A DNA stretch of 64,000 bases from an uncultured virus (IMG/VR IMGVR_UViG_3300049433_000291) (taxonomy: Duplodnaviria > Heunggongvirae > Uroviricota > Caudoviricetes). This document shows positions 7,955 through 63,670 of this stretch, piece by piece. The position numbers were made by a program, and so were the translations under genes. Under the pieces are notes generated by a model that worked only from the letters and a program-made list of their open reading frames with translations, was not told the DNA's origin and did not search any database. Positions within the stretch are counted from its first letter, which is position 1. Each line of letters begins with the position of its first letter. The DNA lies in the IMG/VR virus record IMGVR_UViG_3300049433_000291; one strand, written 5' to 3'.

Positions 7955-10468
7955 TCAACAGCGACTACGTCCGCAATCGCGGCAAACGTAGCAGCCTCCA
8001 GAAAACTCTACCTGTCCTCCGCATTCGACGCATTTTCCGATCATGCTGTGCATGCCCTTTGCCTGTTTTGACTGGATATGTGGTGTAGTTTTATTAGCTC
8101 GCGCAGAGTCCATCTGCCCGGCTAAGCGGCGTTGCATGATGAGTAGGCATTCAGCGATGGCTTGCTCAGGAGAAGTAAGCAGCCGTTGGTTGAACCAGAC
8201 GGAATGAGTGCCGGTGGTAGTGTCGAGCATGTGTGCGACTTCCTTGACGTGAAAGCCCCCGCGCAGCATTTTCGAGGCTAGTTTCCCAACGCTTGATGAG
8301 ATTGGTCCAGTGACAAATATTTCCTGGATTTGCTTACCGTTGTGATTAACAGTCACGTAGAGTCTTTGACCGTCGAATTCAATCTGCCAGGTTGAGCCGG
8401 AAAGTTCCTTGGGGCGGTCCTCTCGGTCGGGAGCCCAATCGATCACTGTAACCGTTTCCGGGAATTCGGAAAGTGATGGGATGGGATCTGCGATCGTTTC
8501 CTCGGGCTGCGCGGCCTTTTTCATGCTGGTGAGGACCTGTTCGTCGCGAGAGCCGTCGCGATAGTAACTGACGGCTTTGCAGCCGAGTTGTCGAGCGAGC
8601 ATGTATAGCTTGCTTACCGATTCAAGCGTGTCGTCTTTTGCACCGTTGCAGGTCTTGGAAACAGAGTTGTCTACATTGCGCTGGGCGGCTGCGAGTACCT
8701 GTACATGTTGCTCGGAGCTGATGTCCATCGCCGAAATGAAGTGCGCGGGAAGCTTGTTTAAGTGTTCGACAACGTAGCCGGCGGCGCGCTCGATTGAGTC
8801 CTGGTCTGTCTGGTCTACATGGACTCCGAGGGCCTCGGCGGCGAGGGGATGTACGTAGGTGCGAGTACCAATAGTGTCTTTGCGGACATAGGCCCAGGAA
8901 AAGTTTGGCTCTACGCCACTCGATGTTTCGGCAACGAGCGAGATTGTGCCTGTAGGTGCGCAGGTGGTTGTCTCGTAGTTGCGAGGAGTTAAAGGTACTT
9001 CGGGCGAAATTCCAATAGTGTCGTAGATAAATTCCTGGTAGGCCGACCGGTTCTCTTCAAATTCGGGGAAAGCGCCTTTTTCCAAGCCGAGATGAAGACT
9101 CTTATTCCAGGCTTCATAGCGTACAAAGCCCATGACCTCGTGCATAAGTTCGCAGGATTCCGGAGAGCCATAAGTGATACCGAGTTTCAAACAAAGGTCG
9201 GCGAAGCCCATGATACCGAGCCCCACAGGTCGAGTGCGCTTGACGGTGTCTTCGATTTCAGGGAGTGGCCAGGTGCAAGTATCAATAACGTTATCCAGAA
9301 ACTGCGTGCTGGTGTGGACGACGTGGCGGAGGTGGTTCCAGTTGATATTGCGGCGACCGCGGCTGTCGGTGTCGTGAAACTTGCTGACGTCGATCGAGCC
9401 AAGATTGCAGGAGTTGTTGGCGTGCAGGAATTGTTCGCCGCAAGGGTTACACGAGTAGATCGGTCCCATTGAGGCCATCAAATGGTTGTGGCGATTTACT
9501 TCGTCGATGAAGGCGATCCCGGGTTCGGCATACTTGTGCGCGCTGGCAAGAATGCGATTCCAAATGTCGCGGGCATAGATCATTCCTGGGCCGGGAGGCG
9601 TGACTTTCTTGTATCGGGTCAGGTCCTGTTTAAGGAAAGCGTCACGGTCGCAAAAGACTAGTGGGTCCGGTGCGAAGCATGGGAAGTTATCTTCGCGAAC
9701 GTAAATGGCGTAGTCGTCATCGGCGACAGGATCATAGATCGCCTGGGTCCATGGTCTACTATCGAACTCGAGTTGAAACCATTCGTTGTTATCAACGGCG
9801 GCGAGAAAGTTGTCCGTGACGTTGACCGAGATATTGAAGTTAACTAGGGAGTGCTGATCGTTCTTGGCGTGGATAAAGCGGAGAATGTCGGGGTGGGTGA
9901 CTCGCATCATTCCCATATTCGCGCCGCGGCGAACTCCCCCTTGTTTCACGACATCGGTTACTTGATTGACGATGTTCATGAAAGAAACGGGCCCGGAGGC
10001 GGTGCCGTGTCTCAGGCTGACGGTGGCGCCTGCGGGGCGTAGCGACTCGTAAGTCATGCCGGTGCCGCCGCCGGTTTGATGAATCATCGCGGTAACCTTG
10101 GCATGGTCCATGATGCCGGCAATGGAGTCGGGAATTTCGAGAACAAAGCAAGCGGCAAGCTGGCCATTGTCGCGGCCGGCATTCACGAGGCAGGGAGTGT
10201 TGGGCAAAAACTCACGGTTGAGCATGATCTCTGTCATGGCTTGATGAAATTCGCGGTGCTTTGTCGTGTTCGTTTCAGCCTTTGAGACGTGATCGACAAC
10301 GCGCTTGACAATATCGGGCCATTCTTCGGTAGGTTTACCCTGCAGATCTTTTACCGAGTAACGCTTGCTTGCTACTTTCCTTGCGTTAAGGCCGAGGGTG
10401 CGCGATTTGACTTGTCTCTCAGTGGGAGTGAAAGAGGCCTCAGGGGTTTGCTCGATGACGGTACTCAT
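7955..10468 (-). CDS. nrdJ: Class II (adenosylcobalamin-dependent) ribonucleotide reductase with TSCPD-like domain and C-terminal Zn ribbon
   Basis: FLPNTPCL.NAG, QLAACFV, GGGTG, VKQGGVRRGANMG, NPCGE, APTGTIS, SVSKT, YYRDGSR; C-terminal CxxC...CxxC..SRC; no beta-subunit gene nearby. Confidence 0.93.
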   Translation of the reverse strand: MSTVIEQTPEASFTPTERQVKSRTLGLNARKVASKRYSVKDLQGKPTEEWPDIVKRVVDHVSKAETNTTKHREFHQAMTEIMLNREFLPNTPCLVNAGRDNGQLAACFVLEIPDSIAGIMDHAKVTAMIHQTGGGTGMTYESLRPAGATVSLRHGTASGPVSFMNIVNQVTDVVKQGGVRRGANMGMMRVTHPDILRFIHAKNDQHSLVNFNISVNVTDNFLAAVDNNEWFQLEFDSRPWTQAIYDPVADDDYAIYVREDNFPCFAPDPLVFCDRDAFLKQDLTRYKKVTPPGPGMIYARDIWNRILASAHKYAEPGIAFIDEVNRHNHLMASMGPIYSCNPCGEQFLHANNSCNLGSIDVSKFHDTDSRGRRNINWNHLRHVVHTSTQFLDNVIDTCTWPLPEIEDTVKRTRPVGLGIMGFADLCLKLGITYGSPESCELMHEVMGFVRYEAWNKSLHLGLEKGAFPEFEENRSAYQEFIYDTIGISPEVPLTPRNYETTTCAPTGTISLVAETSSGVEPNFSWAYVRKDTIGTRTYVHPLAAEALGVHVDQTDQDSIERAAGYVVEHLNKLPAHFISAMDISSEQHVQVLAAAQRNVDNSVSKTCNGAKDDTLESVSKLYMLARQLGCKAVSYYRDGSRDEQVLTSMKKAAQPEETIADPIPSLSEFPETVTVIDWAPDREDRPKELSGSTWQIEFDGQRLYVTVNHNGKQIQEIFVTGPISSSVGKLASKMLRGGFHVKEVAHMLDTTTGTHSVWFNQRLLTSPEQAIAECLLIMQRRLAGQMDSARANKTTPHIQSKQAKGMHSMIGKCVECGGQVEFSGGCYVCRDCGRSRC

Positions 10469-23158: not shown

Positions 23159-24187
23159 ATGAATCCAATGAATCCAGATAAGCCAAGCATTAACCCGCGT
23201 ACTGTTGTTACGGACGGCGGGTCTGTGGCTCTGGCGCGAATGTTGGCGGGAACCGGTTACATGGTTCAGGAGGGAGTCCTCGGCGATTTGACGCAGGCAA
23301 TTAAGAGCGGTGCTCCGCATTTGATCGAAGGGGAGCGGGGCTCAGGGAAAACGGCTTTAGCCGAAGCCCTGGCGATCGCTTGTAACCTTCCGGTTTTTTA
23401 TTTACAGGGAATGGAAGGTTTGGAACTCGAGGATGTGCTTTATAGCTGGGACAGAGAAGGTCAGTCTCAGTGGGTGCGCCAGGCGATTGCTTCGGGAATG
23501 GATTTGAAGGAAGCACGTGAGAAGCAATGGGGCGCGGACTATCTGATGTTTGGCGAAGCTTTGGGAGCTTTTGAGTTTGCCGCGCGTACAGGGGTTGTGC
23601 CGATCCTCATCGTGGATGAGATCGATAAGCTCCAGGATACGACTGAGGACATGTTGTTGCAGTTATTCGGTCGTGGTTATGCGCACGTGCCGCGTTACGG
23701 TCATGTCGGCGAGAGAGATCCATCGCGATGGCCGGTAGTCGTTTTATTGTCAAATGACATTAGACATGATCTGTCGGCGCCGATGCGCTCTCGTTGCGTT
23801 TATACGTGGATGGATATGCCGAGCGCACGTGAAGAGGTAGCCATATTGTGCGCTCGTGTGCCGGATGCGTCGCGCGAGGCGGTGGCTTGGGTGGCGAAGC
23901 TGCTTGACTGTATTCGTGCGATCCCTGGAGTTCAAGACAAACCTGCGTTGCGCGAAGGCATTTGTTTGTTGAGTGCTTTCATGCGTGATGCGGTGCGAGA
24001 AGTAGATGAGGCTACTTTGACATCGTACTTGTGTTTGATTACGAAGCGGCGGGGTGATCGTTCTTATCTACAGCAGTCGATGGCGCGAATCGAACTTGCA
24101 GTTAATGAGCGGCACGATGAAGTCGACGTGTGGGTAGAACAGGAGTTTGGTTTGCGCGAGCGTGGGCATCTGGCAGCCGTAGCTTGA
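23159..24187 (+). CDS. MoxR-type AAA+ ATPase
   Basis: LIEGERGSGKTALA, IVDEIDK, LLSND..DLS.PMRSRC (sensor I / Arg finger). Confidence 0.85.
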   Translation: MNPMNPDKPSINPRTVVTDGGSVALARMLAGTGYMVQEGVLGDLTQAIKSGAPHLIEGERGSGKTALAEALAIACNLPVFYLQGMEGLELEDVLYSWDREGQSQWVRQAIASGMDLKEAREKQWGADYLMFGEALGAFEFAARTGVVPILIVDEIDKLQDTTEDMLLQLFGRGYAHVPRYGHVGERDPSRWPVVVLLSNDIRHDLSAPMRSRCVYTWMDMPSAREEVAILCARVPDASREAVAWVAKLLDCIRAIPGVQDKPALREGICLLSAFMRDAVREVDEATLTSYLCLITKRRGDRSYLQQSMARIELAVNERHDEVDVWVEQEFGLRERGHLAAVA

Positions 24188-44338: not shown

Positions 44339-44902
44339 TTAGGCGGCGAGTGCGGCGCGCGAGGTGAAGTTAGACCAGGCGTTGACCGCATCAATCCGAG
44401 TGCGCGCGTAGTACAGGCAGTTCTTTGTCCCACCTGATGTGCCGTCCCACATTGCGAGTACAAGCGCGTTGGCGGGGCCGGGACCGTTCTTGAGCGCCAG
44501 GTCTACCATTCTCTCGTTTCGGATCTGCATCTTGTTTGGCGCATATTCGCCGGGTGAACAAACAATCACCTTGGCGGCGTGGCGAATGTAGTTGGCATAA
44601 GCGCGACGTGCGTGAAGTGGCCACTGAGATTCTTGGCCGCGGAAAGGAATGCAAGCAACGTATGGTAATCCGAGATTCAAGCAGGCCTCGACGATCGCGG
44701 TATCCCATCCCAGGGCCATTCCGGAAATCGCGCCACGTGGGCGAAGGGCGGCCAGCCAGTCGATTGCAATCTGTTTAAGAGCGGTCTGGGCGGCCTCGCT
44801 GAAGCCTCCGCATTTCTGGGAGCGGTGGCCAGTAGCGACGATGATGCGGCTGTGGAAGTCGGGAGTAATTTCAGACGGCCGTTGGAATGGTAGAAACAAC
44901 AT
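44339..44902 (-). CDS. SLOG-superfamily protein (YspA/DUF1273-like)
   Basis: ATGHR, ISGMALGWD, IPF.GQE..W, RNERMVD, WDGTSGGT. Confidence 0.85.
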   Translation of the reverse strand: MLFLPFQRPSEITPDFHSRIIVATGHRSQKCGGFSEAAQTALKQIAIDWLAALRPRGAISGMALGWDTAIVEACLNLGLPYVACIPFRGQESQWPLHARRAYANYIRHAAKVIVCSPGEYAPNKMQIRNERMVDLALKNGPGPANALVLAMWDGTSGGTKNCLYYARTRIDAVNAWSNFTSRAALAA

Positions 44903-44964
44903 TGGAGTCAGTCACCTCGCGAGTAGAAAAAGTTAAAATCAGTAATTGCAGTCGAGTCTGAATC

Positions 44965-45444
44965 CTATTTCAGGTCGTAAACGGTGACCTGGAGTCCATG
45001 ATTGGAGAGCTCGTCGTCGATGATTTTGGCGATTGTTTGCCAGTTTCCACCGGCAAGTCCAGCCGCCATGCGTGGCATGTGGATCGAGGCTGTGTGAGTG
45101 AGGGCGAGTTGGCGAACTCGCTGGAGGCCTTTGCGGATGGCTTCGTAGCGGACTGGAGGTGGATGATTGAGGCGCCCATTAGCAATGCCGGATTGGCCAA
45201 TGATGTTCGCGACGCAGAGCCCGGTGGCGACGCGGACGAATTGGACGTTACCGAGGGCGAAAGGGAGAGTTTCGAGACCTGTCGCCCATCGGCGATAGGC
45301 GCGCTCGGGTTCGGGCCAGCGGTGTGAGAGGGCTTTGACGAATCCGGCATTCCAGTAGCCCTGGTCGTTGCAGCAATGAGTGATGATGCGGTTTTCAGAC
45401 CCTATTGGCTGGGTGGCATCGCCTCTGACGTAGTTGACTGGCAT
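44965..45444 (-). CDS. Macrodomain ADP-ribose-processing protein (Poa1/TARG1/DarG-like class)
   Basis: YVRGDAT, IITHCCND.G.W.AGF, IHMPRMAAGLAGGNW. Confidence 0.88.
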   Translation of the reverse strand: MPVNYVRGDATQPIGSENRIITHCCNDQGYWNAGFVKALSHRWPEPERAYRRWATGLETLPFALGNVQFVRVATGLCVANIIGQSGIANGRLNHPPPVRYEAIRKGLQRVRQLALTHTASIHMPRMAAGLAGGNWQTIAKIIDDELSNHGLQVTVYDLK

Positions 45445-52326: not shown

Positions 52327-52474
52327 TGGTGTTTTTCGATCTTGTTAAGGAGAATCTTGGTGGTGGCAGTGGCGCGTGGGCGACACAATCTTGGCGCCGT
52401 GAGAATTTAGAACGACCCACGCTAGTGAATGAGGCACTTGCGTGGGTCGTTCGCTCTCTCAGGAATTGGAATTT

Positions 52475-52666
52475 ATGGTATATGTGTTCCAATATGGCTC
52501 GAATACGCTATCGAGCCGGCTGAATTCCGAAACCAGGTTAAGAGGTGATGCGCGCCCAATAGGCGCAGTCTATACGGAAGCGAATTTTGAGCTGGATTTT
52601 GACGTGTGGAGTGATACAAACAACTGTGCCGTAGCGGATATCATCCGCGCGGATCGTTGCGAATAG
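52475..52666 (+). pseudogene. Truncated gamma-glutamylcyclotransferase-like gene
   Basis: YVFQYGSN N-terminal signature and 'FELDF...S....AVADII'; stops after 63 aa. Confidence 0.6.
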
Positions 52667-52743: not shown

Positions 52744-54171
52744 GTGACAAACCGACATTGGCCAGTTGAATACGTAGATCAATTAATCGTCGGAGAGCCT
52801 AGCAGCAACATAGCGATTTGCTGTTTTTGGTCCAGTAAAGACCGTGTGCAAGCCGTGCTCTCTCCAGAGAGCTATTGTGTGATCGGAAATCTCTATTCGC
52901 GAGCGGGCCTTAGCCCAATGCTGCGTAACATACTCGCCAAGCCCTCGATCCGCTATTTAGTCCTCACGGGCACGTCTCTCACCGACAGTGAAGAAGCGAT
53001 GCTCGATTTCTTCAAGCACGGCGTGGACCAAGACTGGAAGATTATCACCAACGGCGCGCAAATCGACGTTGACTTACCGCTGCCAGCATTGAATGATGTC
53101 AGGAAAGGTGTCGAGCTAATTGACTTGCGGGGCTCCCAGCCTTTCGAGACAAGATTTCATGAACTAACGGGCAGCCTGGAGCCGCGTCCAGCATTTGCGA
53201 AACCGCGTACCTTTCCAAAGACGCCGCACACAGTCCAGACCTTTCCGAGCGAGTTTAGCGGCTTCATCGTTAGGCAGAGGACAATCTGTGAAGCCTGGCT
53301 CGAGATCATATGGACCGTAATGACCTTTGGGCATACGTCGCCAACGGATTATGGATTGGAGCAGAAAGAGGTCCTAGCGCTACTCTCAGTGATTGAAGAG
53401 CCACAGTCGCACCTTGACTATCTCCCGGATTGGTCCCCATTCACCAAGGAAGACATAACGAATTATGTGCACACCTTTTTGGATGCTGAGAGCCATGACA
53501 ACGTGGCATACAACTACGGCTATCGGCTGCAGTCTCATTGGACCGAGGATCAGTTGGAGAGTATGGCTACTGAGTTAAAGCGTTCAGGCCATTCTCGTCG
53601 TGCTGTCGCAAGCCTTTGGGACCCGCGTGAGGATAGTGGAACATCGGATCCTGTGTGTCTCACCACAATTCAAGCCGCAGTCCGCGATGGCAAGCTTCAT
53701 CTCATGACTTATATACGCAGCAATGACATGTTTCGCGCATATCCGCTCAATGCTGCTGCGCTGGCCGCTTTGCAACAGCGTCTTACCGAGCGAGTGGGAA
53801 AGATCGCTATCGGGTCATTAGAAATTCTTTCGTTTTCAGCACACATTTATTCCGATTGCTGGGACCTTTGTGAGCGCGCCAAGGCTGAGGCTTCCAGACT
53901 CAATCGAGGATTTCAGCAGGATGATCGCGGCAGCTTTGTTTTTCGCATGGACCATAAGCGCCTTGTCGCCGATCACTACAGTCCGCTAGGCGATCTTGTG
54001 CAAACGTTCACGTCGAAGAACGCAAGCGAGTTAACTGAGCTAATCGCACCTTTCGTCAGTCGAGTTGATCATGCGATGTATCTAGCAAGAGAGATTGGTC
54101 GTCTTGCCTCGGCCTTTGAAAATGGTCAAGCCTACGAGCAAGATGAGGTTAGAAAAGGTCGAAAAGGATAA
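52744..54171 (+). CDS. Thymidylate synthase-family protein with MtrA-like N-terminal and DUF4346-like C-terminal domains
   Basis: SRRAVASLWDP, PVCL (catalytic Cys), YIRSNDMF.AYPLN, SAHIY; N-terminal IGNLYS..GL...LRNILA.P.IRYL.L.G; C-terminal D.RGSF...SR.DHA.YL.REI...YEQD. Confidence 0.85.
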   Translation: MTNRHWPVEYVDQLIVGEPSSNIAICCFWSSKDRVQAVLSPESYCVIGNLYSRAGLSPMLRNILAKPSIRYLVLTGTSLTDSEEAMLDFFKHGVDQDWKIITNGAQIDVDLPLPALNDVRKGVELIDLRGSQPFETRFHELTGSLEPRPAFAKPRTFPKTPHTVQTFPSEFSGFIVRQRTICEAWLEIIWTVMTFGHTSPTDYGLEQKEVLALLSVIEEPQSHLDYLPDWSPFTKEDITNYVHTFLDAESHDNVAYNYGYRLQSHWTEDQLESMATELKRSGHSRRAVASLWDPREDSGTSDPVCLTTIQAAVRDGKLHLMTYIRSNDMFRAYPLNAAALAALQQRLTERVGKIAIGSLEILSFSAHIYSDCWDLCERAKAEASRLNRGFQQDDRGSFVFRMDHKRLVADHYSPLGDLVQTFTSKNASELTELIAPFVSRVDHAMYLAREIGRLASAFENGQAYEQDEVRKGRKG

Positions 54172-54176
54172 GAGCT

Positions 54177-55217
54177 ATGAACGGTGCGCCCTCACTGGAA
54201 GCAGAACTAAGACGTCGAGCGGATCTTAACGAGGATGATGCCGTAGAGCTTTGGGGGCGCTACAGCAGTATGAAGTCATACCTATCGCGAGAATACTATC
54301 CCTGGATTCAGGCCAATAGTTCCTTTTTGACTGATCACGGAGATCAGCACATAAAATCAGTGATTCAGGCAGCCAGCGCACTTATGAAAAGGCATCTGGA
54401 TCCTGAGACCGACATCAGGAGGAGAACGCTGTCTTCTTTGGATCTATTCTTAATCCTCTCTGGCATTCTGTGGCACGACGTGGGGAATGTTTATGAAAGG
54501 TCTGGCCATGCTGCACGCGTTGCACAGATGACAGAGGGAATCAAGAAACTTGGATTTCCCGACTTAGCAATTCACCGTCTCGTTGTAGAAATTGCGGCGG
54601 CTCACTCAGGCAAGACTGGATTGACGAAAGCTCGTCCTGAGGAGGATGCCTCGATGCTCCATGGAACGTACACTGTCTATACGAGAGGTTTAGCTGCTAT
54701 CGTGCGATTAGCCGACGAGGTGTCTGAGAATCGCTTCCGTATCAGCACGGAGCTATTACCAGACGTTCCTGATGAGAACCGTATATTTTGGCAGTACGCG
54801 AACAGCGTGACCGCTTCAAGACCTGAGCCTGAAAGAAGGCGAATCGTTATAACCATAGAGTTACAAGAGGAAGTGGCTATTGAAAGATTCCTATGTCCCG
54901 AGTTTCCCAGTCGAGTAGACGACGAAAGCAAGATGCACTTAATGGATTACATTGTATGTCGGCTGGAAAAGATGAACAACGAAAGGGCCTATTGCTCAGC
55001 CGCATTTGGGAGATACGACACGATCGACGAAATCGAGGCTAGGTTTGCCCTCCTGAATGGCATCAATCGGATAAAGGAAACTACTGTTTTCTTTGGAGAT
55101 GCCGGTCTCAAAAGCGGTGATCAGAACGCTTACCCAAACATAAACGTCTTCGAGGAGTTTTATACTGACCATCCAGATTGGAGACCAGAGCGGATTAAGG
55201 AGGCGCTGTCGCAATGA
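54177..55217 (+). CDS. HD-domain metal-dependent hydrolase (HD-CE-like)
   Basis: FLTDHG..HI..V, WHDVGN, H, AAAHS, LAAIVRLADE. Confidence 0.85.
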   Translation: MNGAPSLEAELRRRADLNEDDAVELWGRYSSMKSYLSREYYPWIQANSSFLTDHGDQHIKSVIQAASALMKRHLDPETDIRRRTLSSLDLFLILSGILWHDVGNVYERSGHAARVAQMTEGIKKLGFPDLAIHRLVVEIAAAHSGKTGLTKARPEEDASMLHGTYTVYTRGLAAIVRLADEVSENRFRISTELLPDVPDENRIFWQYANSVTASRPEPERRRIVITIELQEEVAIERFLCPEFPSRVDDESKMHLMDYIVCRLEKMNNERAYCSAAFGRYDTIDEIEARFALLNGINRIKETTVFFGDAGLKSGDQNAYPNINVFEEFYTDHPDWRPERIKEALSQ

Positions 55218-57055
55218 GCCAGAACAATACATCAGTTGACGGCTCAACCACCTTCACAAATCCCTTTGTTGTTGAGAGCCCTGAAAAACTTACCACCGCA
55301 CAGATAGTGGATCTATTCGTCACAAAGTTTACGGATATCGAGACCGTAAAGCAGCGCAAACATACGTTCATCTGGGGTTCACGCGGTGCCGGCAAGAGCA
55401 TGATGCTTAGATACCTAGAGCCCCAATGTCAAAGTCTTGTTTCGGGTGGCATCAGCGAGTTTTTTGGACAAGGTAATCCGTTTTTTGCCGTGTATTGTCC
55501 CTGCAAAGAAGGACAACCGAACAAGACAGAGCTTCTCCTGCTTGATAAGTACTCCACACTCATTATTAGTGAACACATGATGAACCTGTCGATTGCCGAC
55601 AGGTTAGTTGACTCATTGCGGATACAGTTCCCGAAAGATTTCTTTGGAAAAGAGGAGTGTACTAGCTTCGTCAACAAAACAGTGAGACTCTTTGATAGGG
55701 CGTCAATCGCGTCTTCGATTGAGCAGGTTAACTCCGTGGTGGACCTCGAAACAAACCCGCTTGATTGGCTTCAAGAACTTTTCATAGCCGAGAATAGAAA
55801 AGTTAGCAATTATTTGACGCGAAACGCCTTGAGCGGCGGTGGCGCGGTCTACGAAGGCGCCACCAGCGGTTACCACGACTTCATGCTACCTTTGATGAAG
55901 TTGGCGCAAGGATTCGCCAGTCTAAATTCCGCCTCAATATATGTGCTACTTGATGATGCGGGCAAGTTGACTAAAGAGCAGCAGAGCATCGTCAACACCT
56001 GGATTGCAAATAGAGATCAGTCAGCGATCTGTTTGAAAGTATCAGCGCTCCGCGAAGAATACAAGACCTTCCTAACCCGTGACGGTGGGCTAATTGAGAA
56101 GCCACACGATTACTCCAAGGTTGATGTCGAAGAACTCTACACGCAATCCAAAGAAGATTACGCTCAAAAAGTAAAACTCATTGCAAATCGGCGTCTAGAA
56201 TTATCAGAGGTCCCAACAAAGGACATTGAGCAGTTTCTACCGTCGGATCCGACCGAAGAAGCTCTGTTAGACGACTTCAGGAAGGAGACCGCAGCACAGT
56301 GGGAAATCGAGGGTCAGCCTGGGCGCCAGCGAGACTACGTGACCAGATATGCGACCGCAAGACTATTTCAGCATTTAAGAGCCAGTAGACAGCGCAAGAG
56401 TTATGCGGGCTTCCAGAATATTGTGCATTTGTCCTCCGGCGTTGTGAGAGATTTTTTGGAGCCGTGTTATCTGATGTTCGATGAGTATGTCAGCGGAGAT
56501 CGGGACCCGAGCACAGTTTCAGTCATCCCTCCCGCGTTTCAGAATGAGGTACTGTTCAGATATTCGGAAGAACTGATCTTAGGAAAGTTCGAGGATATTC
56601 GAAAGAACCTACCCCCGGAGAAATGGCCCCAGGTTGATGCGCTAAAAACGCTGTTGGAATCGCTCGGACGACTCTTTTACGAGAGGCTCCATGATCCGGA
56701 AGCGCGAGAGGCGCGGTTGTTCTCTTTTACTGTAAGAGGCCAGGTTACTGCTGACGTGGCAGATGTGCTCGACTTAGGTGTTCGTCATCGCTACTTTCAG
56801 CTTCGCACGTATAGCACGAAGGAAGGCGGCGGTCGGGAGAGCTGGTACATCCTCAACCGGTGGCTGTGCCCAGCTTACAAGCTCGACCCGACCGGCTTTG
56901 AGGGAAGGATCTCTCTTACACCAAGATTCATTCAGTTAGCCACCGAAGATCCCGATAGATTTGTCCGACTAAGACTGAAGCAAATGGACGATGACTCGCC
57001 GGACAAGGATAGACAGCCCACTTTGTTTTCGCTTGAAGAGGAGGCGGTGGGATGA
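55214..57055 (+). CDS. P-loop ATPase (ORC/CDC6-like, STAND-related), copy 1
   Basis: NPF, GSRGAGKS, LLDD, SSGVVRDFL; ATGA overlap with the HD gene. Confidence 0.85.
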   Translation: MSQNNTSVDGSTTFTNPFVVESPEKLTTAQIVDLFVTKFTDIETVKQRKHTFIWGSRGAGKSMMLRYLEPQCQSLVSGGISEFFGQGNPFFAVYCPCKEGQPNKTELLLLDKYSTLIISEHMMNLSIADRLVDSLRIQFPKDFFGKEECTSFVNKTVRLFDRASIASSIEQVNSVVDLETNPLDWLQELFIAENRKVSNYLTRNALSGGGAVYEGATSGYHDFMLPLMKLAQGFASLNSASIYVLLDDAGKLTKEQQSIVNTWIANRDQSAICLKVSALREEYKTFLTRDGGLIEKPHDYSKVDVEELYTQSKEDYAQKVKLIANRRLELSEVPTKDIEQFLPSDPTEEALLDDFRKETAAQWEIEGQPGRQRDYVTRYATARLFQHLRASRQRKSYAGFQNIVHLSSGVVRDFLEPCYLMFDEYVSGDRDPSTVSVIPPAFQNEVLFRYSEELILGKFEDIRKNLPPEKWPQVDALKTLLESLGRLFYERLHDPEAREARLFSFTVRGQVTADVADVLDLGVRHRYFQLRTYSTKEGGGRESWYILNRWLCPAYKLDPTGFEGRISLTPRFIQLATEDPDRFVRLRLKQMDDDSPDKDRQPTLFSLEEEAVG

Positions 57056-58074
57056 GACATTGGTCCGTAGACGAACTGACGAACCACGGCGGTCTTCAGA
57101 CGATACGAGAAGGAAGCGTCCCAGACGACATGTTTCTCGTTTCTGCCAGTTATGAAGCTAGAACCCTTACCGTGGCGCAGTCTCTCGCCGGTGACTATAG
57201 GGCCACACGAGGAGTTATATATGTAAACCAAGAGCTGTTGAGAGATCCTCAGAGCGATAGAGTTAGGCCACACCTTGATGAGCTAGTACATCTTTTGCTC
57301 TCTCACTGTGAGTCAATTGATCAAGCGGAGGGCAGTTGGCTTGATCCGAAGCGCCAACTCTTAGCCCTGCGAAGGGCATTAGTTACGTCCGCATACGAGC
57401 CGATGCAGGATGTTGCTGTGACCGTTGACACCACAACCTTCAATCGAGAATCGCTCTTGACTGCTATGGCCCTACTCCGAAATCATTTTCCCGCTTCGAA
57501 AATAAGGGTAGCCTATACGTCACCTCAAAAGCACGGGGAATGGCTGAGCCAAGGTTACCGAAGTGTGCGAAATGTAATGAGCTTCGCTGGAATTCAGCAA
57601 TCCAGCCGTCCCACACTTCTGGTTGTTTTATCTGGTTTTGAACCTGAGCGGACTTTGAAACTCATAGAGGAGCATGAGCCATCGAAAGTCTTACTCGGAA
57701 TTGGGGATCCTCCGACAAATCAGCAATTCTTGCAAAGGAATCTCGATGAACAAAAGCTAATACTGGCTAGACAGGAGGTTGAGAAGTTCAGTTTTCCAGC
57801 AAGTGACATGCTGCTCTGTCGCGACTCGTTGGAAACTCTTTTGCAAGCGTACTTGAAGAGTCACAACATCGCTTTAGCTCCAATGAGCACCAAACTTTCT
57901 ACGCTTGCTGTCTTCCTGGTCGCCGAGGAGCATCCGGAGATTCAGGTTACTTACTGTGTTCCTGGAGAATACAACACCGATAGCTATTCTTCGGGCGCGG
58001 ACAGCGTATTCGTTGGTGAACTGCCACAACGCTCGGTAGAAGCGAAAGCTTTGGGCGTTCCGGATACTAGTTGA
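57052..58074 (+). CDS. ATPase partner protein, copy 1 (tandem Rossmann/CARF-like fold suspected)
   Basis: ASYEAR, VDTTTF, GFEPER, APMSTKL; ATGA overlap; paralogue of 60826..61803. Confidence 0.7.
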   Translation: MRHWSVDELTNHGGLQTIREGSVPDDMFLVSASYEARTLTVAQSLAGDYRATRGVIYVNQELLRDPQSDRVRPHLDELVHLLLSHCESIDQAEGSWLDPKRQLLALRRALVTSAYEPMQDVAVTVDTTTFNRESLLTAMALLRNHFPASKIRVAYTSPQKHGEWLSQGYRSVRNVMSFAGIQQSSRPTLLVVLSGFEPERTLKLIEEHEPSKVLLGIGDPPTNQQFLQRNLDEQKLILARQEVEKFSFPASDMLLCRDSLETLLQAYLKSHNIALAPMSTKLSTLAVFLVAEEHPEIQVTYCVPGEYNTDSYSSGADSVFVGELPQRSVEAKALGVPDTS

Positions 58075-58151
58075 ATTCAGCGTCTTAACAAGGATTGTAC
58101 GTAGCGTTGTACTTCGACTCGATGAGCGCGAGCTGATAGGAGATCATTTAC

Positions 58152-58186
58152 TAGTCCCTTGGTCTTGGTTCAAACCTGAGGGCCAA
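58152..58186 (+). pseudogene. Degenerate tRNA 3'-half-like remnant
   Basis: TAGTCCCTTGGTCTTGGTTCAAACCTGAGGGCCAA resembles variable loop plus T-arm plus acceptor 3' strand; no D-arm, no CCA. Confidence 0.35.
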
Positions 58187-58351
58187 CGGCGGCGACACAT
58201 CCAAGAGAATTGTTAGCTCCTTCATCAGTAAGTGTCGGTCACGCACTCCATTTCGAGGCCCAATTCAACCTCTCGCAGCATTCAAGACAGTCGGGGGGGG
58301 CAATACACGACTGGGAACGGACCTACTTGCCCGATGAGGAGAAAACCTGGT

Positions 58352-60829
58352 ATGGCAATCCCATTCCTCACCGTTGCGATCGGTTATATGGCGGGTCTCG
58401 GCAAAGGCCTAGCCGTTAACTTGGCAGCAGCAGAGATCTACGCAAGATTCAAGAAAGAGGACTTATTCTCATTGTTGGAGCGCTGCCTTGAGGATGCTAT
58501 GAAAAACCGATCTCATATCCTCGATAGCGCAGCAGTCTTACCAGGAGGATCTGTTCAAGGTGCGTACTTGGATAAAGAAAGGCTCCGGGATTACTTGGCA
58601 AAGAACCAGTCTATCGTCCCATCGCCCTCTGAATCAGGGGCGGAGAACCCGTGGCGAGAATATCTGAAACCCTTTGAGGAAATCATTGTTATTCCCACTT
58701 TCAAAGCCGAAAGCGAACGCCTAAATTCCATACAGGATGTGCTCGATGAAGCTTCGCGACTCTTTACCGCACGAGTTCCTTATCAGCAGCCTGCATTCCA
58801 AGAACTGTTGCTGAAATTCCAGGAGAAACACAGCGACGAACACAAGGAAATCATCAAGAAGATCGATGCATTAAAACCAAGTGGTCCTTCTCTATTAATC
58901 GAAGTCGGGCATGATGAAAACCCAATCGCGGAGATTACAGTGAGCGCATGGGTCAATCCTTTTTCGATCGTCGCGGCTGACGATTTGGAGCTCACCAATC
59001 CAGAACACGTCAGACAGATTAGGAACCTTTTCATTGCCAGATACACTGACCTGCCAACAATCCAAAAACACTACAATACTATCCTCGAAGGCCAGCGCGG
59101 TACTGGGAAGACAATGATCATGAAGTATTTAGCCTTCGAAACTCAAATCCTAGAATGGGTTGAGAAGAAGAAACGGCAAGGTGCCGAATTCTTATCGTCC
59201 CCGGAGAATTTCATAGGTGTCTACTCAAAGCTCGGTCAGGGTGTTTTTGACAAGACTGACTTTGAGGCTATTAGCGACAAGACCAGGCGTGATCGCATCT
59301 TTGAACATCGACTCACGCTACAATTACTGTCTGACGTTCTCGATACGATGAAAGCCGTATACCAGCACTTCCCTCCTAGCACCGAAGACGTAAGAAGAAT
59401 TAAGCAAGCACTGAACTCCCTTTTGAAAACCAACGGGACCATAGATGTATGTCTGACGGCGAGTGATTTGATTAGAGCGGCTCAAGATCATATTTCCTTC
59501 ATTTCAGTCCAAGAGGTAGACGAACACTTGGGTTCGGTGTCACCAGGTGGTGGAACCAGCTCGACAGACTTTAATCCAAGCCTGACACTGTCCGGACAAC
59601 TGATACCCTTTCTTAAGTTGCTTCGACAATCGTGCAGTACAAGCGTGCCATTCTTCCTCATGCTAGATGATTTTGATGTACTCGAGCCATTTCAGCAGGA
59701 GAGAGTTTTCAAAACGGCTTCGTCTAGGCAATTGGGCACAGTCTGTTTCAAGTTCGGTGTCATGATTCATGGCAAAAAGGTTTTGCTATCGGGTGAGGGT
59801 AGAACGTTTCGCAATAGCGATGACTTTAACCGGATTGACCTTGACTGGACCGAGGGAGGGCTCCATGAGAATTACCAGAAATCGCTTATTGATATTGCCC
59901 ATGCTCGTTTGGAAGCTGCCGGTTCAGGTTGGAACGCCCAACTGTCATCGTTGCTCCCAGAATGGCAGCGCGGTAATGAGATATTTCTCGAGGTCAGAAC
60001 AGTAATGGAGTCTGAATGGGAAACGGACGAAAAGCCAACCGACTCCAAGAGTGATTACGTTTCAAAATATGGAAGCGCCAGATTCTTCCAGACGCTTAGA
60101 AAAAGAAAAATCAGGATGCGATATGCAGGCCTCGAATACATTACGATGGTCTCTTCGGGTATCTATCGTCAGTTTTTGGAAATCTGCAAGCTGATTTTTG
60201 ATCGTGCTCACGATGAAGGCTGGATACCAGAAAACGGCGGAGTTCGCGCTGAGATTCAGGATATAGCAGTGCGCGAGTATTCTGAGGAAATGATCCAACA
60301 GTTTTCACGCACATCCGGGGACGCTCAATCTCTGCTTCACGGCAATATTGAGGTCACTTCCTCACATATGACTACACTTATTGATAGCCTTTGTGACGTT
60401 TTCTATTCGCGGCTTCATACTCCGGTTGGTGTACTGGGGAGTGGCGAGCCTGAAATCATTTGCGTGGCAGTGCGTGATGATCTTGGTCGGTGCCCGGAGG
60501 CTGACATCCTATTAAAGATTGCTGTCAGAGAATCAATCCTTCATCGGTTTCAATACGCGCCAAAAACTTCGGGCGGTCCGCCTCTTCCGGCTTTCATGTT
60601 GAATAGAAGATTAGGTCCACGCCGGGACTTAAGCATCAGGCGTATGCAAGGGCGAATTGAGGTTGAAGCTGCTGACATCATTTTAGCGGCGAAAGACCGT
60701 AGAGAGTTTTTTCAGAAGATGCAGGGAAAAAAGGTGAATGCTGACCGAACGAGCATAGACGATACATCGCAGCAGGTTGGCCTTCCGTTAGGAAAAGTAA
60801 TGGGAGAGTCTGAACAGACTGAGCAATGA
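58352..60829 (+). CDS. P-loop ATPase (ORC/CDC6-like), copy 2, with extra ~190-aa N-terminal domain
   Basis: ATG 58352 after GAGGAG; NPF, GQRGTGKT, MLDD, SSGIYRQFL; paralogue of 55214..57055. Confidence 0.85.
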   Translation: MAIPFLTVAIGYMAGLGKGLAVNLAAAEIYARFKKEDLFSLLERCLEDAMKNRSHILDSAAVLPGGSVQGAYLDKERLRDYLAKNQSIVPSPSESGAENPWREYLKPFEEIIVIPTFKAESERLNSIQDVLDEASRLFTARVPYQQPAFQELLLKFQEKHSDEHKEIIKKIDALKPSGPSLLIEVGHDENPIAEITVSAWVNPFSIVAADDLELTNPEHVRQIRNLFIARYTDLPTIQKHYNTILEGQRGTGKTMIMKYLAFETQILEWVEKKKRQGAEFLSSPENFIGVYSKLGQGVFDKTDFEAISDKTRRDRIFEHRLTLQLLSDVLDTMKAVYQHFPPSTEDVRRIKQALNSLLKTNGTIDVCLTASDLIRAAQDHISFISVQEVDEHLGSVSPGGGTSSTDFNPSLTLSGQLIPFLKLLRQSCSTSVPFFLMLDDFDVLEPFQQERVFKTASSRQLGTVCFKFGVMIHGKKVLLSGEGRTFRNSDDFNRIDLDWTEGGLHENYQKSLIDIAHARLEAAGSGWNAQLSSLLPEWQRGNEIFLEVRTVMESEWETDEKPTDSKSDYVSKYGSARFFQTLRKRKIRMRYAGLEYITMVSSGIYRQFLEICKLIFDRAHDEGWIPENGGVRAEIQDIAVREYSEEMIQQFSRTSGDAQSLLHGNIEVTSSHMTTLIDSLCDVFYSRLHTPVGVLGSGEPEIICVAVRDDLGRCPEADILLKIAVRESILHRFQYAPKTSGGPPLPAFMLNRRLGPRRDLSIRRMQGRIEVEAADIILAAKDRREFFQKMQGKKVNADRTSIDDTSQQVGLPLGKVMGESEQTEQ

Positions 60830-61803
60830 TGGAGTCAATAAGCGAAGTGCTTGGTCAAATTGAGCCGACCGCTGGTGATAAGGATTCAGTCCTCATAACG
60901 TGCGCTAGCTTTGAGGAGCGTTCAACTGCGGTGGCGCAACGACTCGCTCAGAATTATGCCGCGGAACATACCTTCATTTTTCGGTCAACCGAATATGGGG
61001 ACTTGGGGGACTCACCTGAATACTTTCAATTTATCGAAAGCAAAATGACTAGCATTAGTAAGAACAAGCCTAGTGTGATCAAATTCTCCATTGATCACTC
61101 GATCCCTTCCATGGCCCAGTTTGAAGGCTCCTACCGGGAACTCAAAGCGACCTCGTTGGTTAGCAACGTCTCAGTGGACGTTACAACATTTCCACGGCAG
61201 GAATTGTTAATGCTGCTGCGCGTTTTGGACAGCCAATCCGATCTTGCCTCCACGCGGCTCTTCTACGGAGAGCCGCTTAGGTATTGCACCGAGGACGCGG
61301 GCGGATGGCTCACTAGAGGAGTCAAATCTGTGCGCCCCGTTCCTGGCTTCGGTGGAGTTCAGCCCCCGAACAAGAAGAAGAATCTGCTGATAATGTTTCT
61401 GGGCCATGAGGATGAGCGAGCTGCAATTACATGGAAGCGACATCAGCCGAGAAAAACTATTGCTATTGTCCCGGATCCGAACTATCGGAAGGAGATGAAC
61501 GGCATAGTTGAAAGAACGCATCAGCCGCTGTTTACGAAACTGAGCACAACGGAATTCTATCCGGCAGTTCCCGCCCGAGGGATAGTGGAGTCCGAGAATG
61601 CGGTGTTGAGGATATGGGAGGAGCATCATGAATCCTACTACATAGTTGTGGCTCCTCTCGGGACTAAGTTACAGACGTTGGGTATCTATAGAGCGGTGCG
61701 GCGAAGACCGGATATTCAGATCACGTATGCGATACCTTCAATCTATAACTACCGGAATTATTCTGTTGGGGTAAACCGCATTTGGGAGATCCATTGGAAC
61801 TAA
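60826..61803 (+). CDS. ATPase partner protein, copy 2 (tandem Rossmann/CARF-like fold suspected)
   Basis: ASFEER, VDVTTF, GHEDER, APLGTKL; ATGA overlap. Confidence 0.7.
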   Translation: MMESISEVLGQIEPTAGDKDSVLITCASFEERSTAVAQRLAQNYAAEHTFIFRSTEYGDLGDSPEYFQFIESKMTSISKNKPSVIKFSIDHSIPSMAQFEGSYRELKATSLVSNVSVDVTTFPRQELLMLLRVLDSQSDLASTRLFYGEPLRYCTEDAGGWLTRGVKSVRPVPGFGGVQPPNKKKNLLIMFLGHEDERAAITWKRHQPRKTIAIVPDPNYRKEMNGIVERTHQPLFTKLSTTEFYPAVPARGIVESENAVLRIWEEHHESYYIVVAPLGTKLQTLGIYRAVRRRPDIQITYAIPSIYNYRNYSVGVNRIWEIHWN

Positions 61804-61879: not shown

Positions 61880-63670
61880 ATGTCGAACGTAACTTATGTC
61901 ACATCCTTACTGTCGCGGCAATATAAGGATCCGTCCCTTAATAACCATCGTGATCCACTAGATGAAATAGTATTTATTCTCCTTTCCGAAAAGACCGACG
62001 AAGCTAAGTACACAACCGCCTTCAGAAATTTGAAGGCTCGCTTTCCTCGCTGGACAGGAGTTCTCAGCGCGCCCGTGCGCGAGATCAAGACGGCGATCGA
62101 GACCGCCGGAATGGGTAACCGACGCGCAAATCTCCTTCGTCGACTATTTAAAGCCATTGTTGAAAGGTTTGGCGCTCTGGATCTTTCAATGCTTGCAGGA
62201 ATGTCTTTGGAAGAAGCTGAGGCCGAACTGATTCAACTGCCAGGGATCGGACGCAAGGCCGCGCGATGTGTATTGCTGTATTGCTTCGATTTTCCTGCCT
62301 TACCTGTTGACGTGCACACTTATAGATTAGCTATTAGGTTAGGCATCCTTTCACGTCGGGTTTCTTATGAACAATCCCACGAAGCGTTGCCGCGCCTCGT
62401 TCCATCTCATTTGCGTCGGCGTTTCCACGTAAATGCAGTAGCTCATGGACGCGCCCGGTGCTTTGCCCGCAAGCCCGACTGTAATGGCTGTCCGCTGGCA
62501 GAACACTGCTCTTATCCGGAGGCGGTTAGACCTTTGCGGATCGTCGCGAGGCCTGAGCCACTTGCCATAGATCTTTTCGCTGGTGGTGGCGGATTAAGCC
62601 TAGGGTTTGAAAAGGCGGGTTTCCGCATCGTGCAATCGGTCGAGAGTAATTCAAGAGCCGCAGCTACATATGCACACAATAATCCTGACGTGGATCTTAT
62701 TGAAAGAGATATAAGGCAGATCAATCCGCGCACCTGTTTAGCACGCCTCGGACTTAGGCCTGGCGACCTGACTGCCTTAATCGGGGGGATTCCTTGTCAG
62801 GGATTTTCAGAATCAAACCGCCGCACGCGGAATTCAGCCAACCCTAATAACCATCTTTATAAGCGATTTATTCGGTTCTTGGATGTGCTTCGGCCAGCAT
62901 GGTTCGTGATAGAGAATGTCGCCGGCCTGCGAACGATGGAGCGCGGCTTGATTCTGCAGCGAATTATTCGCGAATGCAAAGCACTTGGCTATGAGGTTAA
63001 TTGGCGGGAACTCAATGCCGCCGATTTTGGAGTCCCTCAGGTTCGTCGCCGCATATTTATCATTGGAAATCGGTTTGGCTTGCCGATTCCGTTTCCGGAG
63101 GCGACGCATGGTCCAGGATGTCAACTGCGAGTAACGGTGCGTAAGGCGCTTGGCGATTTGCCCGTTCTTAAAAATGGTGCTTCCAAAGATTATCGGCCGT
63201 ACGGAAAAACTGGCCGAGGACTGACTAAGTACCAGCGCATGATGCGGGCTTCGAGGAACGGGACCGGCGAAGTTCAGGGGAATCTGGTTACACGAAGCAC
63301 AGACGTAATTATCAAGCGTTATCGGCACATACGGGCTGGGGGGAATTGGGAGGACATACCAACTGAACTGATGATCAATTATGAGGATCCTTCGAGATGT
63401 CACACTGGTATTTATCATCGATTAGAGTGGGACAAACCAGCCAAAGTTATTGGAAATTTTCGAAAGAACATGCTTATACACCCTCAACAGCATCGAGGCT
63501 TGTCGGTAAGAGAGGCCGCACGTCTTCAATCGTTTCCGGACGACTATGAGTTCCTGGACTCGATCGGATTCCAGCAACAACAGGTGGCCGATGCCGTACC
63601 GCCGCTCTTGGCGGAAGCGGTTGCCAAGCACATCATACGAGCTGATCGAACAATGGGCCCCAAACGATGA
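61880..63670 (+). CDS. Fusion of an HhH-GPD endonuclease III-like DNA glycosylase ([4Fe-4S]) and a DNA cytosine-C5 methyltransferase
   Basis: LPGIGRKAA, PVDVH, CFARKPDCNGCPLAEHC; then DLFAGGGG, PCQGFS, ENV, Q.RRR, RLQSFP, DAVPP in one frame. Confidence 0.9.
   Translation: MSNVTYVTSLLSRQYKDPSLNNHRDPLDEIVFILLSEKTDEAKYTTAFRNLKARFPRWTGVLSAPVREIKTAIETAGMGNRRANLLRRLFKAIVERFGALDLSMLAGMSLEEAEAELIQLPGIGRKAARCVLLYCFDFPALPVDVHTYRLAIRLGILSRRVSYEQSHEALPRLVPSHLRRRFHVNAVAHGRARCFARKPDCNGCPLAEHCSYPEAVRPLRIVARPEPLAIDLFAGGGGLSLGFEKAGFRIVQSVESNSRAAATYAHNNPDVDLIERDIRQINPRTCLARLGLRPGDLTALIGGIPCQGFSESNRRTRNSANPNNHLYKRFIRFLDVLRPAWFVIENVAGLRTMERGLILQRIIRECKALGYEVNWRELNAADFGVPQVRRRIFIIGNRFGLPIPFPEATHGPGCQLRVTVRKALGDLPVLKNGASKDYRPYGKTGRGLTKYQRMMRASRNGTGEVQGNLVTRSTDVIIKRYRHIRAGGNWEDIPTELMINYEDPSRCHTGIYHRLEWDKPAKVIGNFRKNMLIHPQQHRGLSVREAARLQSFPDDYEFLDSIGFQQQQVADAVPPLLAEAVAKHIIRADRTMGPKR

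Follow-up and report, generated by a model that had tools for sequence, protein, structure and literature searches.

Two anciently diverged ATPase–CARF6 cores, very probably served by one DNA methylase and one thymidylate synthase, at a probable composite defence locus

In the window, that is, the 64,000-nucleotide stretch of DNA analysed here, a conjugative element very probably carries a composite defence locus (Table 1). A cassette with the order thymidylate synthase (TS), HD-CE, ATPase 1, CARF6 and Nth/Dcm has, with the same confidence, acquired a second core, which consists of an N-domain fused to ATPase 2 and of a further CARF6 gene. This second core is of the same family, is held with high confidence to be anciently diverged, and is positioned between the first CARF6 gene and the methylase. 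An earlier note, made from the sequence alone, had described two ATPase-plus-partner modules, a separate HD gene before the first of these and an extra N-terminal domain on the second ATPase. All four reading frames are intact and both additional features are present. What had been missed is that the upstream TS fusion and the downstream glycosylase–5mC methylase fusion belong to the same system, being common to both modules and present in one copy each. The window lies as one unbroken piece of uniform depth in X1, from which it may come, and short, near-identical pieces of both modules that do not bridge the junction are present in X2 and X5.

Table 1. Features of the composite locus, with positions in the window
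Feature	Position	Strand	Role or basis
TS fusion, MtrA-like / archaeal-type ThyA / DUF4346	52744..54171	+	cassette accessory gene; Pfam PF04208, PF00303, PF14251
HD-CE metal phosphohydrolase	54177..55217	+	predicted module 1 effector; PF24391
ORC-CDC6-like AAA+ ATPase 1 (switch), 613 aa	55214..57055	+	PF24389 E 9e-90
CARF6 tandem double-CARF sensor 1 (partner 1), 340 aa	57052..58074	+	PDLC01917 E 1e-73; modelled fold
Module 2 left junction, non-coding, 277 bp	58075..58351	.	L001 DNA alignment
ORC-CDC6-like ATPase 2 with ~200-aa all-helical N-terminal domain	58352..60829	+	PF24389 E 1e-59
CARF6 tandem double-CARF sensor 2 (partner 2), 325 aa	60826..61803	+	PDLC01917 E 1e-43
HhH-GPD/4Fe-4S glycosylase :: C5-cytosine DNA methyltransferase fusion (Nth/Dcm)	61880..63670	+	PF00730, PF10576, PF00145

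Both ATPases match PF24389 well above its cut-off of 27 bits (302 and 203 bits) and have intact Walker A and Walker B motifs; sequence searches returned no solved structural relative. In ATPase 1, the Walker A sequence GSRGAGKS and D247–D248 are invariant across 23 sequences. The motifs originally listed as shared are all found in both copies, with one correction: the Walker A element reads GxRGxGK[ST]MxxxYL and is one residue longer than had been written. The ATPase 1 gene overlaps that of HD-CE by 4 nt. HD-CE scores 59.7 bits against its family model (cut-off 27), and residues H54, H58, H100–D101, H111, H143 and D180 are invariant in 15 sequences, so that the metal-binding H..HD..D set is intact. 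A profile search for solved structures yielded only a weak match to an exopolyphosphatase HD domain.

ATPase 2 is 825 aa long when read from the ATG at 58352. A database protein is also 825 aa and homologues begin at the same Met, which makes the longer GTG start at 58232 unlikely. Where ATPase 2 has its helical N-domain, sister proteins carry TIR or metallophosphoesterase. The N-domain model is helical with a low pLDDT (47), and its first helix is hydrophobic. A weak lead to an NNH2-like domain came from an ESM Atlas NNH2 cluster (0.90; 156 of 256 features, low recognition) and from a weak match to Pfam NNH2 (PF22734; E 0.52, one of four members). The domain is possibly a membrane effector, and the suggestion of two sensors with different effectors fits this combination of HD-CE and a helical, NNH2-like domain. 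The tRNA-like look of the junction to the left of module 2 was not borne out, with zero matches from ARAGORN and in Rfam, and a promoter and terminator scan gave a signal no higher than in shuffles.

The partner proteins had been likened to CARF-type Rossmann folds, and this was borne out. Both match the PADLOC CARF6 profile over nearly their full length (residues 24–324 of partner 1 and 19–320 of partner 2). The AF2 model of partner 1 (pLDDT 93.6) aligns to Can1 with a Z of 13.8 and an rmsd of 3.5 over 229 residues spanning both lobes. CARF and SAVED proteins occupy the top ranks of this comparison (SAVED Z 8–10), and single CARF domains align to residues 185–306 with Z 11–13.6. In a Foldseek search, most matches were to transporters and USP at low TM, and those to CARF began at rank 21. 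The chain is filled by the two CARF lobes and carries no fused effector, unlike the type III CRISPR ancillary CARF effectors.

All 47 CARF6 proteins compared have R37, D126, Y155 and K281, none of which is part of the ATPase interface in the model. These are presumably CARF ligand-loop positions, and their invariance is suggestive only of nucleotide-ligand binding. Common to both sensors (partner 1 numbering) are E35, R37, D126, R132, Y155, W164, E197, R200, K281, Q298, Y307, N308 and Y312. Convergence on 5mC-specific pocket residues was considered and is unsupported: pocket residues common to the two 5mC clades are missing in the independent 5mC-linked locus L076, so that they may mark ancestry and not 5mC reading.

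Modelling supports the binding of sensor 1 to ATPase 1. This cognate pair scored 0.85 against 0.00 for the best control, with contact agreement of at least 85% and a partner pLDDT of at least 82. Of solved pairs, 116 of 157 attained the mark applied to such scores, as did 2 of 215 mismatched ones; the mark is only roughly valid here. Between modules, interface residues are 21% (ATPase) and 27% (CARF6) identical, and the residues that are conserved concentrate in CARF6.

In the glycosylase–methylase fusion, every catalytic motif checked is present and the methylase falls in a cassette-specific clade; relatives carry Vsr in the glycosylase role. The TS fusion has both the catalytic PxC and the RSxD...N motif, the Asn of which we take to confer dUMP specificity, and matches TIGR03283 with an E of 1e-40, under the model cut-off. 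No gene for a nuclease or a nucleotide cyclase turned up in the cassette. As the seven cassette proteins include no nuclease family, and hence no restriction endonuclease, the locus is set apart from type II restriction-modification.

Both modules represent the core of a cassette that is widespread and comprises a DNA methylase, an effector, the ORC-CDC6-like ATPase and CARF6, often with a TS. The effector slot is interchangeable and is taken by HD-CE, TIR, metallophosphoesterase, PRTase-CE, Calcineurin-CE, kinase or caspase. At E ≤ 0.001 the CARF6 profile has 2,318 representatives (50% clustering) from bacteria and one archaeon. The cassette is carried on small plasmids; no relatives were found in viral contigs or phage records, and PF24389 and CARF6 matches are absent from G001 (85% completeness). 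The loci were gathered by similarity to the window proteins and are not independent samples. Among 35 other loci that are fully flanked, the methylase is present in 33 (absent from L016 and L081) and the TS in 18 (absent from 17), and 34 have a single module, the remaining one having a stacked pair in a different order. In 60 non-redundant other loci, a methylase lies within 7 kb in 50 and a TS in 26; L078 and L081 are cores that lack the methylase. The 60 include L023, which is a CARF6 remnant only, and the 50 exclude L062, where the methylase spans the plasmid origin. Short duplicates (L045–L061), L068 (equal to L002), L030–L032 (the same cassette as L033) and the flank pieces L082–L083 were left out of the counts. 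When neighbours were clustered across loci, no unassigned gene recurred. The literature search found no paper describing or testing the cassette, and an earlier description may exist in print.

The two modules had been explained by tandem duplication. The ATPases are 26% identical over 628 aa (E 1e-46) and the partners 27% over 318 aa (E 1e-33). The ATPase tree agrees with the CARF6 tree, and the modules fall into two different starred clades, one of 26 rows and one of 8; AU tests reject sisterhood of the modules (p 9.6e-48 for the ATPases and 4.4e-53 for CARF6). Further evidence came from L001, a collinear close relative (73% and 71% DNA identity) that lacks module 2. Here, the DNA match ends at ~58034 and restarts at ~61907, and the corresponding gap in L001 is 112 bp. 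Identity to L001 is 85% for ATPase 1, 76% for the glycosylase–methylase fusion and 67.5% for the TS fusion, which is 59.8% identical to its counterpart in L066. Relatives of module 2 are found alone, between TS and Dcm. The AU tests and the absence of module 2 from L001 speak strongly against duplication in situ, and the side-by-side arrangement is ordinary defence-island stacking.

Several known systems resemble parts of the locus. The CARF6 clade is represented in PADLOC-DB ('CARF6--CARF_CARF_CARF', 'CARF_STK_AAA'), where an ATPase–CARF fusion also exists as model PDLC01925. We take this clade to be that of Makarova et al. (2020, NAR). PADLOC-DB differs in offering domain models only, and no ligand or activity of CARF6 was found in the literature searched. 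Compared via their Pfam models (PF24389–PF24391, PF24408), the predicted HD-CE, PRTase-CE or Calcineurin-CE plus ORC-CDC6-like conflict systems, presumably those of Nicastro et al. (2023, NAR), share the ATPase family and the interchangeable nucleotide-targeting effectors, whereas these models include neither the helical N-domain effector nor the stacked form. Can1 and the SAVED receptors likewise have two CARF lobes per chain; CARF6 differs in having neither a fused nuclease or effector nor a nearby cognate cyclase, and in its predicted docking on an ATPase. Only the methylase, among 16 proteins, matches the DruM2/DrmMII models of Druantia type II and DISARM class II, and the DruE and DrmA/B core is absent.

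Two further systems offer a precedent for mechanism. Metis, or PUA-Cal-HAD (10.1101/2025.11.05.686725; 10.64898/2026.01.15.699771), has a similar proposed logic, in which a breakdown product of methylated host DNA triggers a nucleotide-depleting abortive effector. It senses m6dAMP, and methylase-carrying ('type III') and 5mC versions have been predicted (10.1101/2025.11.05.686725). The window system differs in having a double CARF in place of PUA as sensor, an AAA+ switch between sensor and effector, 5mC as the proposed mark and no HAD phosphatase; its proteins have no PUA, HAD (MisB) or DS9 matches, and the words CARF, ATPase and thymidylate occur zero times in the Metis text. ApeA is activated by short deoxy-oligonucleotides, namely deoxydinucleotides, from genome degradation (10.64898/2026.01.26.701840), but is an unrelated single HEPN protein in which methylation is not involved.

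The two cores are, in all likelihood, parallel sensor-switch-effector units that have one methylase and one TS in common. Two diverged cores with outputs of their own and a single DNA methylase suggest that broken-down methylated self DNA is the alarm signal. Of the cassette C5 methylases, 33 of 37 group in a single clade whose target-recognition region is conserved, yet their distribution across the ATPase clades is shuffled, which points to a ligand with sequence context; the tree omits L009, L017 and L029, which are partial or split, and L023, which was not entered. Free swapping of methylase specificities, as expected for a plain m5dCMP signal, is contradicted by this tree, and the proposed ligand was therefore moved from m5dCMP to an oligonucleotide. 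Methylase class requires three changes on the CARF6 tree, whereas 300 shuffles required seven or more, but this is a comparison in which kin share labels.

By analogy with Metis and ApeA, CARF6 may sense short 5mC-bearing DNA fragments from a phage-degraded host genome, a reading given somewhat less than an even chance. The methylase would place 5mC at the sites of a conserved sequence in host DNA, and degradation of the chromosome by a phage would cause short 5mC-bearing deoxy-oligonucleotides to build up. These would bind between the two CARF lobes of a sensor docked on its cognate ORC-type ATPase, tripping the ATP switch and releasing the effector. The output of module 1 would be nucleotide depletion by HD-CE and that of module 2, probably, membrane damage by the helical domain, with abortive infection as the end result; two effectors could provide backup against phage inhibitors. 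The glycosylase, or Vsr in relatives, would repair T:G mismatches left by 5mC deamination. More speculatively, the extra TS would keep uracil out of DNA and prevent thymineless DNA breakdown, which would otherwise raise a false alarm. The locus is a natural experiment, in that two cores ~26% identical depend on one methylase, and places in one construct the questions of what an effector-less, cyclase-less CARF binds and why it keeps company with a methylase and a TS. If the methyl-fragment model is true, damage-signal immunity extends from m6dAMP to 5mC and CARF domains gain a new ligand class. A fuller version is doubtful as a whole: that CARF6 would be the first CARF family with a ligand not supplied by a dedicated synthase and would read sequence-defined 5mC fragments of the methylated DNA of the cell itself, with one methylase writing the signal, stackable units firing different killers, extra TS suppressing false alarms, and some islands enforcing the arrangement by disrupting the thyA of the host and bringing a replacement.

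A restriction-like system that reads unmethylated sites would be just as compatible with the conserved specificity of the methylase. Here, methylation would shield host sites, the ORC-type ATPase and CARF6 would detect unmethylated incoming DNA, and the effector would kill the cell with no DNA cutting. The near-universal methylase agrees with this, and part of one source (10.64898/2026.10.19.760177) describes ORC/CDC6-clade ATPases as binding DNA. It is nevertheless unlikely, if the strongest of the alternatives, because in both the window and L066 one methylase serves two 26%-identical ATPases with different C-terminal wings, conservation between modules lies chiefly in CARF6, methylase-less cores exist, and the two-lobed nucleotide pocket and the TS are left without a role.

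A guard of the pyrimidine pool is less probable again. In such a guard, CARF6 would respond when phages disable thymidylate synthesis or SAM supply, by sensing dUTP, fragments containing dU or a collapse of dTTP; the TS would clear the basal signal, as MisB does in Metis, and the methylase would be bait. It would account for the repeated recruitment of three TS types alongside six effector types, with 16 changes of TS state on the CARF6 tree when incomplete loci are scored as absent. However, the methylase is more constant than the TS, its conserved specificity is left unexplained, and a TS was seen in none of four Dam/Calcineurin loci, which are one clade with one locus incomplete. It is improbable that CARF6 is an ancillary receptor, that its cyclic oligonucleotides are produced by type III CRISPR or CBASS at another place in the genome, and that the methylase is a passenger: the nearest folds are indeed cA4 and cyclic-trinucleotide receptors (Can1, Can2, Card1, Csm6, SAVED), but a scan of 30 window ORFs, out of the 38 that reach 150 aa, detected neither Cas10 nor a cyclase, both were likewise absent among 119 cassette and neighbouring proteins of related loci, the cassette moves on small plasmids, and tight methylase linkage is left unexplained. 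Least credible of all is an obligate hetero-complex of two copies produced by local tandem duplication; the earlier note had raised the duplication and, as one of two options, a hetero-complex. The modules are adjacent, co-oriented and identical in domain order, and both clades co-occur in L066 and in part in L037, but sisterhood is rejected, both halves have single-module relatives, gene order differs in L066, whose clade-1 core is only 31–32% identical to module 1, interface identity is low, and the rarity of stacking makes an obligate complex unlikely.

The cassette TS is of three types, ThyX, canonical ThyA and the fused archaeal-type ThyA. Seven methylases that are neither C5 nor Dam carry SPP[YF], presumably an N4-C methylase signature, and all seven have a TS within 7 kb. 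A rule that TS occurs only with cytosine methylases would rest on these seven against the single Dam clade and is too weak to be adopted. In three of three genomes checked, an intact thyA is present at another place besides the cassette ThyX. In G145, G264 and G282 the island is flanked by a split native thyA, so that some TS genes may simply replace a disrupted insertion target.

The claim of a diverged tandem duplication falls: what the window holds is real and intact, but it is a stacked version of a defence family already in the catalogues. All four ORFs of the two modules are intact and in the same orientation, with a 4-nt overlap between the ATPase and partner genes of each module. The two ATPases are 26% identical (E 1e-46) and the two partners 27% (E 1e-33), and the motifs named in the earlier note are found in both copies. 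ATPase2 most likely starts at the ATG at 58352, giving 825 aa. Its N-domain of ~200 aa consists of helices, the first of them hydrophobic, and a weak match to NNH2 is the sole lead. The window lies within a single contig of even depth in sequencing run X1, its possible source. The remaining sequence is that of a conjugative element (relaxase, coupling protein, lytic transglycosylase, SSB, RNase H and ribonucleotide reductase), and cassette genes have a GC content of 0.475-0.51 versus 0.53-0.55 in four backbone genes. The backbone also carries a SLOG/YpsA-like gene; a neighbour of it has no Pfam match and looks macro domain-like. An inverted repeat marks the left border of the cassette, and short contigs of high depth in X1 suggest a multicopy element. 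A short ORF directly upstream of the TS gene presumably resembles a truncated gamma-glutamylcyclotransferase.

Coordinates of the cassette genes, their surroundings and features at related loci (L) and genomes (G)
Feature	Sequence	Coordinates	Remark
ATPase1	window	55214-57055	Pfam ORC-CDC6-like PF24389
ATPase2	window	58352-60829	Pfam ORC-CDC6-like PF24389
HD-CE gene	window	54177-55217	Pfam PF24391; upstream of ATPase1
Thymidylate synthase (TS) fusion	window	52744-54171	MtrA-ThyA-DUF4346; upstream of HD-CE gene
Nth-Dcm	window	61880-63670	HhH-GPD/4Fe-4S glycosylase fused to C5-cytosine methylase; downstream of module 2
SLOG/YpsA-like gene	window	44339-45444 (-)	conjugative backbone
MadB-like AAA ATPase	window	23159-24187 (+)	conjugative backbone; below cut-off
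Ribonucleotide reductase	window	7955-10468 (-)	conjugative backbone
Short ORF	window	52442-52666 (+)	YGSN motif; directly upstream of TS gene
Inverted repeat	window	52410-52452	perfect, 13 bp
FolE2 GTP cyclohydrolase	L001	3914-4933	upstream of sister cassette
Formiminotransferase-cyclodeaminase domain	L001	12899-13600	downstream of sister cassette
HD-ATPase-CARF6-Dcm cassette	L014	7063-12118	Haloarcula argentinensis
HD protein, ~620 aa	L024	5562-7424	after Nth-Dcm
HD protein, ~620 aa	L026	10178-12058	after Nth-Dcm
CARF6 gene 3' end	L023	10001-10087	before intact Nth-Dcm
Core, Calcineurin-CE type	L078	617-4702	
Core, caspase type	L081	9242-13917	
Core	L016	7950-10718	within type I R-M region
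Split-thyA island	G145:C1	3064269-3095696	
Split-thyA island	G264:C5	587971-619852	
Split-thyA island	G282:C29	45502-70047	

Related loci were gathered (genomes, 23; metagenomes, 21; plasmids, 4) and extended with 401 genomes from the order of the nearest genome, 15 of which had a match. In trees of 47 ATPase-CARF6 pairs, the two topologies are congruent. Module 1 belongs to a clade of 26 rows in which HD-CE is a gene of its own, except in L016, where it is absent. Module 2 belongs to a clade of 8 rows in which an effector (helical domain, TIR or metallophosphoesterase) is fused to the N-terminus of the ATPase. Forcing the window copies together was rejected (AU p 9.6e-48 and 4.4e-53). In L001, a locus of a Pyrinomonadaceae MAG, collinearity with the window runs from TS through CARF6-1 (5.3 kb at 73% DNA identity) and resumes across the methylase (71%), while module 2 is absent. 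The closest module 2 relatives (L024, L026, L036 and L038) have TS and methylase and lack module 1. Most simply, CARF6-1 and the methylase would have been separated by the arrival of a clade-2 core; L001 may instead have lost module 2. Folate-related genes adjoin the TS-bearing unit of L001, and an archaeal cassette (L014) is nested among the bacterial module 1 relatives.

Stacking is rare (1/35 other fully flanked loci). An independent case, with a more distant clade-1 core, was found in G145 (L066), in the order TS - ATPase2 - CARF6 - Dcm - HD - ATPase - CARF6 - Vsr, and the short contig L037 is partially stacked. P0001, P0121 and P0312, all with a longest contig of 203,252, hint at a further stacked copy.

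The earlier reading of the partners as CARF-type holds, as both match PADLOC CARF6 profiles and the partner1 fold agrees. The AF2 model of partner1 (pLDDT 93.6) has two Rossmann lobes and is nearest to Can1 (Z 13.8, rmsd 3.5, 229 aligned), followed by Can2, Cam1, Csm6, Card1, Csa3 and SAVED domains. The two-CARF architecture is common to Can1 and partner1, but no fused effector is present in the partner1 model. R37, D126, Y155 and K281 are invariant in 47/47 CARF6 sequences and, going by CARF anatomy, are presumed to lie in the ligand cleft.

The point of interest is the methylase common to both cores, together with repeated TS recruitment. Of 60 non-redundant loci, 50 have a DNA methylase no more than 7 kb away (33/35 when fully flanked) and 26 have TS in that range (18/35); Vsr or HhH-GPD genes are present at 24/60. 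Both window clades have a methylase of the C5 class; in clades further away it is Dam-type or SPP[YF]-type. The C5 methylase tree is discordant with that of the ATPase, although 33 of 37 cassette C5 methylases, including the window's, group in a single clade whose target-recognition region is conserved. The effector slot can be filled by HD-CE, PRTase-CE, Calcineurin-CE, TIR, kinase or caspase, and no nuclease or cyclase was found in the cassette. No methylase gene was found beside the L016 and L081 cores, or beside that of L078, where the contig ends 616 bp downstream. In L023, only the end of the CARF6 gene is left, with a DUF499/helicase system upstream, which suggests that the core was replaced at the same junction. 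The HD proteins of the clade-2 loci L024 and L026 have weak dGTPase similarity.

TS occurs as ThyX, canonical ThyA or the fused form, and thus a function, rather than one gene, was recruited. Cassette ThyX is extra to an intact thyA in G242, G002 and G099, and G109 has the cassette ThyA copy only. In three genomes (G145, G264 and G282), native thyA is in two pieces 24-32 kb apart that flank the cassette island, which itself carries an intact ThyA, different in type. The island thus seems to have entered an essential gene and brought a replacement along; at G145, a clear target duplication could not be seen.

The family has been seen before, as Pfam and PADLOC list its domains; Makarova 2020, Nicastro 2023 and Burroughs 2020 are said to define them. 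The literature searched yielded neither an account of the cassette nor an experiment on it, and the domain-defining papers or their supplements may already cover the methylase and TS linkage. Text passages from papers on BREX, ParA, Domainator, DefensePredictor and CARF proteins (a review) do not cover it; that of DefensePredictor lists thymidylate synthase among domains of validated systems, with 0 occurrences of CARF. No NCBIfam anti-phage model scored above cut-off for proteins of the window or its relatives. The family is thus catalogued but apparently without experimental test.

By analogy with other sensor-NTPase-effector systems, the cassette would provide anti-phage abortive infection. 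Because it holds no synthase, the methylase would be the only enzyme able to supply a distinctive ligand. Our tentative proposal is that CARF6 senses a short 5mC oligonucleotide and TS prevents false alarms. Here, phage-driven breakdown of the host genome would free short 5mC DNA pieces as the CARF6 ligand; an oligonucleotide is preferred over a mononucleotide given the two-lobed pocket with several basic residues and the conserved methylase specificity. Thymidylate synthase limits uracil misincorporation and thymineless DNA breakdown, and by curbing both would prevent false alarms. In published work, m6dAMP from phage-driven genome degradation switches on the suicide effector of Metis, for which 5mC and methylase-carrying versions are foreseen (10.1101/2025.11.05.686725), PUA-Cal-HAD has the same trigger (10.64898/2026.01.15.699771), and ApeA binds deoxydinucleotides (10.64898/2026.01.26.701840). 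A restriction-like reader of unmethylated sites is a somewhat unlikely alternative. Guarding of the pyrimidine pool, with TS as a component, is improbable, and a receptor for cyclic oligonucleotides produced elsewhere is very much so.

The modelled complex of ATPase1 (12-595) and CARF6-1 (1-328) scored 0.85 (runs 0.84-0.87; best control 0.00), with contact agreement of at least 85% and partner pLDDT of at least 82; the score mark, reached by 116/157 solved and 2/215 mismatched pairs, is only rough for the alignments used here. The model supports binding of ATPase1 to CARF6-1 through the inter-lobe linker (167-188) and Q298; none of R37, D126, R132, Y155, W164, R200 and K281 is among the listed contacts. 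Since interface identity between modules is just 21% (ATPase) and 27% (CARF6), about that of the whole proteins, each sensor probably keeps to its own ATPase, and an obligate form of the hetero-complex that the earlier note gave as one option is scarcely credible. Interface identity of L001 to the window is 92% (ATPase) and 98% (CARF6).
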